Positions 45,401 to 48,400 of a stretch of 64,000 nucleotides of DNA are shown here, in pieces. The notes beneath the pieces are model-generated. The model had not been told where the DNA came from, searched no databases, and was given only the letters and a program-made list of their open reading frames with translations. Every line of letters begins with the position of its first letter. Within the stretch, counting starts at the first letter, position 1. Origin of the DNA: Hormiphora californensis (taxonomy: Eukaryota; Animalia; Ctenophora); the NCBI GenBank assembly GCA_020137815.1, contig CM035356.1, positions 4,464,001 to 4,528,000 of the forward strand. Reading direction: 5' to 3'. The translations under genes were made by a program, and so were the position numbers.

Positions 45401-48400
45401 ACGTACCCCAACATCTCATAGGAGCGAGGAACACCACCTCGACTATCACACGTCATGGTAGTCACCTGTGTAGTAGTAATTAGAAGTAGTAATTAGTAAT
45501 TAGTAGTAATTAGTAGTAATTAGTAGTAATTAGTAGTTACCTCTGTGTAACACCCCTGTGTAACACCCCCTCGACGTCATAGTGGTCACCTAAAAACAAC
45601 CACTAACCTAACTTTACTACTGCAACTGGTATATTCGTGATACCACCTAAATAAACCATTGATAACCCACTAATCACTGTTTCAAGATATCACCATCTAC
45701 TATGTACCTTGAAAAAGTCAGATGGTTGAAAGAGAATGACACACTACCTTGAAGAAGTCAGATGGTTGAAAGAGAATGACACATTGAGCTGGTTCCCCAT
45801 CTCTCCCTGCCCTCCCACTCTCTTGGTAATAGTTCTCTATGCTTTTACTCATAGTGTGATGGATAATAAACCTAGAAGAGAGGATAATCCATTTAAAGGG
45901 CCTAAAAACCCACATTTTAATTAATTATTTTGAACACTCCATCGTAACAAGCATGCTATTAGAGTCCCAAAAAGCATAGGCACACGTCACATGGACCCCA
46001 GGTGAGCCCAGGGGGAGCCCCTCAAGTTGGGGCCCATTTGGGGTCCCCTTGTAAACGCGGTTGTACTCCTTGAAATGCTAACAATATGATCCTCTCTCAA
46101 ATATAAAATTTAGGATAGAAATGATCCTTGTGTTTTAGTAGATTTCATAATCTTTCTCATCAATTATTATTTAAGCCTATCAAAACTAGGAGAAAAATTA
46201 CCAGAATAAAGAGACAAGAAAGATTATGTACTCACCTGAAACACAAGGATCATTTCTATCCTAAATTTTATATTTGAGAGAGGATCATATTGTTAGCATT
46301 TCAAGGAGTACAACCGCGTTTACAAGGGGACCCCAAATGGGCCCCAACTTGAGGGGCTCCCCCTGGGCTCACCTGGGGTCCATGTGACGTGTGCCTATGC
46401 TTTTTGGGACTCTAATAGCATGCTTGTTACGATGGAGTGTTCAAAATAATTAATTAAAATGTGGGTTTTTAGGCCCTTTAAAGTCCTATAATATAACAGT
46501 TTTTAAAATACAATTAGTAAAATGAAGATTTATTTAGAATTATTAGCAAATACTTGTTTGTTTGTGTGTTTGTTTGTTTATTTGTTAGTTTGTTTGTTTG
46601 TTTGTTTGTTTGTTTGTTTGTTTGTTTGTTTGTTTGTTTGTTTGTTTGTTTGTTTGTTTGTTTGTTTGTTTGTTTGTTTGTTTGTTTGTTTGTTTGTTTG
46701 TTTGTTTCTTTGTTAGTTTGTTAGTTTGTTTGTTTGTTTGTTTGTTTGTTTGTTTGTTTGTTTGTTTGTTTGTTTGTTTGTTTGTTTGTTTGTTTGTTTG
46801 TTTGTTTGTTTGTTTGTTTGTTTGTTTGTTTGTTTCTTTTTTTGTTTGTTTGTGTGTTTGTTTGTTTCTTTGTTTGTTTGTTTGTTTGTTTCTTTGTTTC
46901 TTTGTATACCTGACATCCTGTTTATCGATTCCCATCCCAAAAGCGATGGTAGCCACAATACATTGTATCTTGTTGTTCAACCACGCATGGTGAACCTCCC
47001 TTCTCGTATCATTACTGAGTAAATGGAATGAGTAGGTTGCAGTGGGGGAATCAGTAAGGTGCACTGTGCAGGTTACTGCAAACTGCAAGGTGGCTCGAGA
47101 GAAGGTTGTATAAAACACGGAACTCGGAAGTAATCTCTTAGTTCCTCTCTCAGTCTCGCTTAGTCACCCTATCCCGCAATACACAAAAATGATCGGTTGA
47201 TAGTTTATTAGCCACATTAGCCACATTAGCCACATTACCCACATTATCAACACACTTACTCTAAGGCAGCGTGATAGTATGCCACATTATCAACACACTT
47301 ACTCCAGGGCAGCGTGATAGTATGCCACATTATCAACACACTTACTCTAGGGCAGCGTGATAGTAGGCCACATTATCAACACACTTACTCCAGTGCAGCG
47401 TGATAGTAGGCCACATTATCAACACACTTACTCTAGGGCCGCGTGATAGTATGCCACATTATCAACACACTTACTCCAGGGCCGCGTGATAGTAGGCCAC
47501 ATTATCAACACACTTACTCTAGGGCAGCGTGATAGTATGCCACATTATCAACACACTTACTCCAGGGCAGCGTGATAGTATGCCACATTATCAACACACT
47601 TACTCCAGGGCAGCGTGATAGTATGCCACACTATCAACACACTTACTCCAGTGCCGCGTGATAGTATGCCACATTATCAACACACTTACTCCAGTGCAGC
47701 GTGATAGTATGCCACATTATCAACACACTTACTCCAGGGCAGCGTGATAGTAGGCCACATTATCAACACACTTACTCCAGGGCAGCGTGATAGTATGCCA
47801 CATTATCGACACACTTACTCCAGGGCCGCGTGATAGTAGGCCACTGATTATCAACACACTTACTCCAGGGCCGCGTGATAGTAGGCCACTTTTAAGTTGT
47901 GTTTGTGCAAGTTACCCATCACTACCTCACAGTCACTTCGTGTCAAACAGTAGATCAACCCACTCTGCCCTGCGAACCTTCCTAGGAAAGTTAATATGAG
48001 GATACGATATGGATATGATACGGATGAAGTATAGAACCATGGTGTAAACACAATGCACAAATCGGGCCGACTATACCTTTAATAAGTGAGGCGATTGTTA
48101 CCATGGTTACCATCGTTACATGTACCTTTAATAAGTGAGGCGATTGTTACCATGGTTACCATCGTTACAATATGTACCTTTAATAAGTGAGGCTATTGTT
48201 ACCATGGTTCAGTGGTGGCCCCAGCCTGGGGTGGTGGGGGGGTGGCCACCCCCCCCCCCCCCCAAACATTTTCAGATAGGGGTTGTCGGGGGTGGTAAAA
48301 TGGTTGAAAAATGTGTTCTAAATAGCTTGAAATTCGTCAAAAATCAAAATTTTCCGGGGGCTTCGCCCCCTTACCCACACCAATAGCTGACCCACACCAA

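Follow-up and report, generated by a model that had tools for sequence, protein, structure and literature searches.

How do untranslated copies of an exon end come to differ from the functional exon mostly at silent positions? This question is raised by a minisatellite in the RECQL1 gene of Hormiphora californensis, located in the 64,000-nt stretch of contig CM035356.1 that was analyzed here and is referred to as the window. A preliminary description of this DNA had stated that the copies vary only at synonymous positions and had viewed them as seeded from, or exchanged with, the functional exon among polymorphic haplotypes, the array being an archive or reservoir of exon ends. Our whole analysis covers one window, two genes and a handful of haplotypes.

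Structure of the RECQL1 Array

The RECQL1 gene is located on the minus strand, with 11 exons from 63,819 to 43,226 that gave one open spliced frame in a frame check. Exon c has human RECQ1 as its best match (E-value = 9e-22), and a protein listed as Pleurobrachia bachei is 98% identical to RECQL1 over exon f, whose end is repeated in the array (Table 1). The array is established at 47,244–47,890 on the minus strand and consists of 15 units, the functional exon end and 14 copies of it (14 units of 43 nt, the first one of 45 nt). Each unit joins the 26-nt end of exon f (V-A-Y-Y-H-A-A-L plus two nucleotides of an Asp codon) to 17 nt of intron starting with GTAAGT, and this donor is intact in every copy. 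Read-through past the donor leads to a stop one codon after it. The public gene model P0001 (P. bachei) ends with VAYYHAALE, exactly at this read-through stop, and is truncated at the array site.

By its unit, the array belongs with the splice-site-spanning minisatellites, as the exon–intron boundary is spanned and the splice site duplicated. Its units stand head-to-tail with a functional terminal unit, and their 43–45 nt fall within the range of 10–160 bp given for such arrays (PMC3087553). The copies bear a donor only, followed by the in-frame stop, and are not tandem exon duplications with alternative splicing, which have an in-frame acceptor and donor of their own. The best reading of the array is therefore a splice-site-spanning minisatellite comparable to the amphioxus “mirage” repeats or to the one in human F7. 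The 43-nt unit had 0 matches in a metagenome scan.

The second gene, on the plus strand, is USP24/USP9X-like and occupies about 3.9–16.1 kb. Its C-terminal part is encoded by a single very large exon at 12,069–16,105 (1,177-aa frame, UCH domain), and its N-terminal part by many short exons. Elsewhere in the window, the intron of a calmodulin-like gene (30,400–34,300, minus strand) apparently holds a single-exon lipoyl/octanoyl transferase gene on the same strand (31,440–32,048, PF21948). Long inverted-repeat (foldback) elements were seen by eye in introns or flanks at 43,859–45,300, 16,135–18,305, 38,500–39,470 and 45,890–46,490.

Table 1. Coordinates of the RECQL1 array, of neighboring exons and of the other exon-edge repeats in the window.
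Feature	Position	Strand	Remarks
First unit of the 43-bp array	47846..47890	-	Functional exon end, authentic GTAAGT donor, 17-nt intron part, 2-nt insertion
14 decoy units of the 43-bp array	47244..47845	-	43 nt each (26 nt exon-derived, 17 nt intron-derived), pseudo-donor in each
9-bp repeats at the distal edge of the array	47207..47246	-	Site of the 5-nt microhomology to exon positions -26 to -22
RECQL1 exon f, functional	47864..47981	-	Last 26 nt (47,864–47,889) are the exon-derived part of the repeat unit; open spliced frame
RECQL1 exon g, next after exon f	46910..47014	-	Spliced frame
RECQL1 exon e, functional	50283..50420	-	Spliced frame; used for haplotype comparison
Exon e end copies (IASLIKG), 3 copies	48074..48209	-	19 nt plus donor; 2.1 kb from exon e, with inserted repeats between; 2 synonymous, 0 non-synonymous changes
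Exon c end copies (HDFRPDY), distal block, 7 copies	52245..52779	-	
Exon c end copies (HDFRPDY), middle block, 20 copies	58159..59625	-	Includes two long exon pieces (59 nt) with donors at 58,792 and 58,411
RECQL1 exon c (63,095–63,271) and adjoining 55-nt copy	63033..63271	-	
Single 40-bp duplication of exon h end with donor	45705..45783	-	1 synonymous change
70-bp acceptor-spanning array, USP24/USP9X-like gene	3293..3915	+	1 synonymous change
35-bp donor-spanning array	4027..4415	+	1 synonymous, 2 non-synonymous changes; counterexample
94-bp acceptor-spanning triplication	4625..4864	+	2 synonymous changes
41-bp acceptor-spanning array, 59 copies	9609..12076	+	12 exon-derived nt only; 3 synonymous, 3 non-synonymous changes; counterexample

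Silent Changes in the RECQL1 Copies

Scored against the functional exon end as reference, the exon-derived part of the 14 copies varies at five sites: GCC>GCA at -21 (47,884 in the functional unit; 9 of 14 copies), GCG>GCT at -9 (47,872; 10 of 14), GCC>GCA at -6 (47,869; 3 of 14), CTG>TTG at -5 (47,868; 1 of 14) and CTG>CTA at -3 (47,866; 4 of 14). All five are synonymous in the RECQL frame, in agreement with the preliminary description. With 6.3 synonymous and 19.7 non-synonymous sites in the exon-derived part, the probability of this outcome is 0.00086 with uniform sites and 0.0039 with the substitution type kept. A sixth difference, AAA>AAT at -27, is located at the unit junction and was left out of the count.

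The silent variants occur in shuffled combinations, as had also been noted. There are 10 distinct combinations in the 15 units, all four gametes are present in five of the six pairs of the four shared sites, and neighboring units are no more alike than shuffled ones (neighbor test, P = 0.27). Such shuffling of variant units is the pattern of inter-allelic conversion. The intron part presents only two singleton changes, and shared variants occupy 0 of 11 free intron sites versus 4 of 9 synonymous-capable sites (P = 0.026).

Other Arrays in the Window

An automatic scan of both genes detected exon-edge copies at 7 of 44 edges; the 41-bp array, which stands before the last large USP exon, is a further one and was added by hand. 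Pooled over the eight arrays of the window, 25 synonymous and 8 non-synonymous distinct changes were counted over 55 synonymous and 215 non-synonymous sites, corresponding to a dN/dS of about 0.08. With the substitution type kept, 11.3 of the 33 changes would be expected to be synonymous (P = 7e-8), and by site count the probability is 1.5e-11. Changes at unit junctions were excluded (besides AAA>AAT, these are ATT>CTT in the 70-bp array and GTC>GTG and TGG>GGG in the HDFRPDY array), and so were small indels and the two single diverged copies that precede exons i and k. The change GAC>GTC, which lies at the edge of the 35-bp unit and may be a junction effect, was counted as non-synonymous. The two single copies derive from the exon starts and lie just upstream of the real acceptors (45,560–45,590 and 43,460–43,490), presenting by eye some silent differences.

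The synonymous pairs cited earlier for other arrays were all recovered, namely ACA/ACG in the 70-bp array (3 of 8 copies), GAC/GAT and TTG/CTG in the 94-bp array, and ATA/ATC and GCA/GCC in the IASLIKG copies. The arrays that had not been named (HDFRPDY, exon h and 35-bp, with the 41-bp array standing outside this subset) have 12 synonymous versus 5 non-synonymous changes (P = 9e-6). The statement that variation is only synonymous holds for the RECQL1 43-bp array and for the arrays then cited, but not for the window as a whole, where 8 of the 33 changes are non-synonymous. In the HDFRPDY array (28 copies) the ratio is 10 synonymous to 3 non-synonymous, each of the latter being found in a single copy. 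Shared amino-acid changes were detected in two arrays: Ala>Gly in 3 of 10 copies of the 35-bp donor array and Ser>Tyr/Phe in about 19 of 59 copies of the 41-bp acceptor array, which has the shortest exon part (12 nt) and the weakest synonymous bias. A homologue search on the Ala>Gly change led to one 77% identical protein, which reads into the intron before that site. Because of these shared changes, the synonymous bias across the window arrays, strong and statistically firm as it is, does not amount to a rule.

The HDFRPDY array also bears on the source of its copies. Exon c and its adjacent copy have TAT, and the other 27 copies have TAC. Two mid-array copies, which differ in their silent alleles, extend further into the exon (59 nt) than the usual unit does, so that a fresh exon template and not copying from a neighbor is needed for them. 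Transposons split the arrays, with two reverse-transcriptase elements among the RECQL copies. Additionally, HDFRPDY copies 1 and 2 are separated by an insertion of 3.4 kb (59,640–63,033) that has terminal inverted repeats and apparently a 4-nt target duplication. This insertion holds a 34-bp array of about 40 units (60,208–61,569) that is donor-spanning-like on the plus strand and acceptor-like on the minus strand, with no exon found adjoining.

Alleles on Other Chromosomes

Seven public runs are listed, from three samples by label, and five of them, all assembled contigs, were compared with the window; the RNA-like run X7 gave no cover on the exons. In run X6, a single 300-nt contig leads from the exon through one intron part to a match with the window flank at 47,186–47,215 (one difference in 30 nt), and no array is present. 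An allele without the array therefore exists, and copy number differs between alleles, as it does in mirages, given that array contigs occur in X1, X4 and X5. X5 and X6 bear the same sample code, and yet the 43-bp array is deep in the former and absent from the latter.

Runs X1 and X4 represent one sample with the haplotype of the window, in which 47,902 is the end point of two contigs that are anchored in unique exon sequence, a single difference being present in one of them. A de Bruijn simulation reproduced the arm ends of these runs (47,861–47,902 and 47,860–47,902) with a SNP at 47,872 (site -9), and the ends fit only if the other state at this position also occurs in array units. GCT, which is the commonest state at -9 in the array, fits all three models; another letter would fit only if the haplotype’s own array carries it. 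For X5, the clipping of the shared exon contig at 47,872 and its start at 47,870 were reproduced by a change at -9 together with a SNP at 47,869 (-6) and not by the three other cases tried. The simulated assemblies thus suggest that the functional exon carries SNPs at -9 and -6, two of the variable sites of the array, their letters being deduced from contig ends and not read directly. At these two sites array variants would match exon alleles, as had been anticipated. None of the functional exons compared (window, X1/X4, X5 and X6) showed GCA at -21, a state present in 9 of 14 copies. The X5 array also contains GCA at -21, and one further intron variant.

Heterozygosity of H. californensis is about 3.2% (PMC8527503). 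In exon e, haplotypes differ at least at 7 positions, all of them synonymous among those listed, which gives at least about 0.23 differences per synonymous site, and one further listed difference, in exon d (50,547), is non-synonymous. With synonymous polymorphism this high, exon SNPs at array sites can coincide partly by chance. Concerning the adjacent intron, X1, X5 and X6 have a different intron start in common at 47,989, and an X1 contig skips 2,291 nt (47,989–50,281) that contain a LINE fragment and the IASLIKG copies. Both features point to a second, unrelated haplotype of this intron.

Mechanism and Alternative Explanations

We consider it probable that misaligned recombination between chromosomes keeps the untranslated copies coupled to the functional exon end. 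As a passive by-product of selection on the exon, the variants in the copies would then be mostly silent alleles that are tolerated in the exon. The process would start with a 43-nt tandem duplication, likely via the 5-nt exon/intron microhomology, followed by expansion. The array-less allele has a 5-nt match between intron and exon at the two ends of the unit, which is the usual mark of microhomology-driven duplication and suggests such an origin. The upstream donor would presumably be the used one, by analogy with human F7, and the exon would be very polymorphic at synonymous sites, as was found for exon e. In heterozygotes, conversion or unequal crossover would likely copy exon-end tracts from other alleles into the units; the same exchange would shuffle tracts among units and overwrite new mutations of the copies with selected sequence. 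Only the functional unit would be under purifying selection. The copies would inherit their low dN/dS, and no function of the array would be needed.

A toy forward simulation was run 4 times per setting on 300 chromosomes, with only the first unit under selection. Exchange among the copies alone gave an N/S of 0.8–1.1, and N/S fell to 0.06–0.23 when the functional unit also exchanged at c/mu of at least 4,000. At c/mu of 400 there was little or no filter (N/S 0.8–0.9), and a first simulation at c/mu of 100 or less had given no clear synonymous filter. Since a strong bias appeared only when the functional unit exchanged, the copies can take over their coding-like pattern from the exon and need no function of their own. 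The amphioxus mutation rate has been measured as 5.9e-9 (PMC12862219). With a rate like this one, the model would need roughly 1e-5 to 1e-4 exchanges per unit and generation. Such rates are within the range of minisatellites. Seeding from, or exchange with, the functional exon, whichever of the two, thus gains support from the exon SNPs at -9 and -6, the long HDFRPDY pieces and the simulation. One departure concerns the intron part, which two-way exchange predicts to vary about like synonymous sites, in disagreement with the 0 of 11 versus 4 of 9 observed. This could reflect constraint on the nucleotides that follow the donor, or pairing confined to the exon because the introns of donor alleles are too diverged.

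The intron part, with only two singleton changes, would be in keeping with a one-way history, in which a young array was repeatedly seeded from different exon alleles with no flow back, the silent variants being older than the array. Its absence from one allele agrees with this, the long re-seeded pieces and the TAT copy beside the TAT exon point from exon to array, and an import-only simulation also lowered N/S, to 0.23. We nevertheless regard a strictly one-way history as unlikely. It is a special case of the coupling proposed above, misaligned crossover is reciprocal by nature, and short-age import runs at low c/mu fell below the observed variant density.

Chance, mutation bias or the choice of examples might be suspected from the few sites per array and from the two counterexample arrays that went unmentioned at first. 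This is very unlikely, because the pooled test includes both counterexamples and keeps the substitution type (P = 7e-8), and three of the five changes in the 43-bp array are transversions. Direct selection on the copies would act if a splice path brought their exon-derived part into the mRNA in frame; the donors are intact in all of them, and downstream pseudo-donors are employed in human 6-16 and CBS (PMC1557585). Such use is highly improbable here, as splicing from a downstream donor crosses the stop one codon past the first donor, an AG at the start is present in copy 1 only and out of frame, and the same bias is found in copies 4–11 kb from the exon. Finally, that arrays are kept as a source of alternative exon ends or backup splice sites is barely credible, for although many exon edges bear copies (the 7 of 44 scanned and the 41-bp array), the variants are silent, one allele has no array and transposons split the arrays, so that the archive or reservoir first proposed survives in a passive sense only and the adaptive idea is not supported.

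Implications

While the repeat structure is already known, purifying selection by proxy on untranslated exon copies is a signature that we did not find described. Neither a synonymous filter nor a match to exon alleles in such repeats was found in the literature searched, which included few subscription papers; the original mirage paper lies outside this coverage and may mention it. Under the coupling by misaligned recombination that we favor, untranslated DNA can show a dN/dS near 0.1 without being coding, which may mislead gene annotation and selection tests, and such arrays offer a countable indicator of the frequency of exchange between short misaligned repeats and an exon. The RECQL1 array also offers a natural setting, in an early-branching animal, for testing which of several identical donors is chosen in splicing. 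With it, the range of mirage-type repeats is extended to ctenophores, and in the window such repeats are common (7 of 44 exon edges scanned and one more array).

More tentatively, and with some doubt on our part, exon-edge minisatellites might recombine both ways with exons genome-wide in this ctenophore, often enough to rewrite exon ends. If so, intronic non-coding DNA would show protein-level purifying selection by proxy, exon edges beside arrays would be richer in synonymous diversity and burdened with harmful alleles supplied by the copies, and each array would give, through its dN/dS, a measure of the conversion rate at its locus.

Comparison with Known Systems

Silent-cassette gene conversion (Neisseria pilS, trypanosome VSG, chicken Ig pseudogenes) likewise involves untranslated partial copies with coding-like variation that are able to recombine with the expressed gene. 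Such cassettes give amino-acid diversity via dedicated machinery, whereas the ctenophore copies do not act as donors of amino-acid variation (5 of 5 changes in the RECQL1 array and 25 of 33 overall are silent), and no machinery or benefit was seen. The human hypervariable minisatellites MS32, MS205 and CEB1 are mosaics of variant units like the array presented here, and their mosaicism has been attributed to non-reciprocal inter-allelic exchange (PMC2599865). Inter-allelic conversion is well documented in minisatellites of this kind. Their units are non-coding, whereas in RECQL1 selection at the protein level acts on one unit and filters the pool of variants.

Human splice-donor VNTRs have been reported as the 37-bp repeat of F7 IVS7 and in CBS IVS13, 6-16, lamin B2 and PDGF (Borensztajn et al., 2006; PMC1557585). 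As in our array, the first unit of the F7-type repeats is established over the exon–intron boundary and is followed by pseudo-donors, and copy number is polymorphic. The F7 unit contains 4 exon bases only, so no coding signal can show, whereas here there are 26–59 exon bases per unit and dN/dS is well below 1.

The mirage minisatellites of amphioxus (Ebner et al., 2010; PMC3087553) share with the RECQL1 array tandem units over exon–intron boundaries, on the 5′ or 3′ side, with the AG/GT signals kept. Haplotypes differ in copy number in both cases, and both hosts are highly heterozygous marine animals, here a ctenophore. Somatic instability has reportedly been observed for the amphioxus Adh3 mirage. 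The amphioxus report discusses homogenization within clusters and intron gain, not exchange with exon alleles, and its main text has no occurrence of the word “synonymous” (PMC3087553). In its supplementary file 4, inspected by eye with the frame inferred, the two functional alleles of BflGb6 differ at 5 synonymous sites, and 4 of the other allele’s 5 silent states occur in the haplotype-1 copies. The pattern is similar but weaker, and the amphioxus copies also contain several amino-acid changes and a stop. The same signature thus seems visible, without comment in that main text, in published mirage alignments, and it may be general in highly heterozygous animals.
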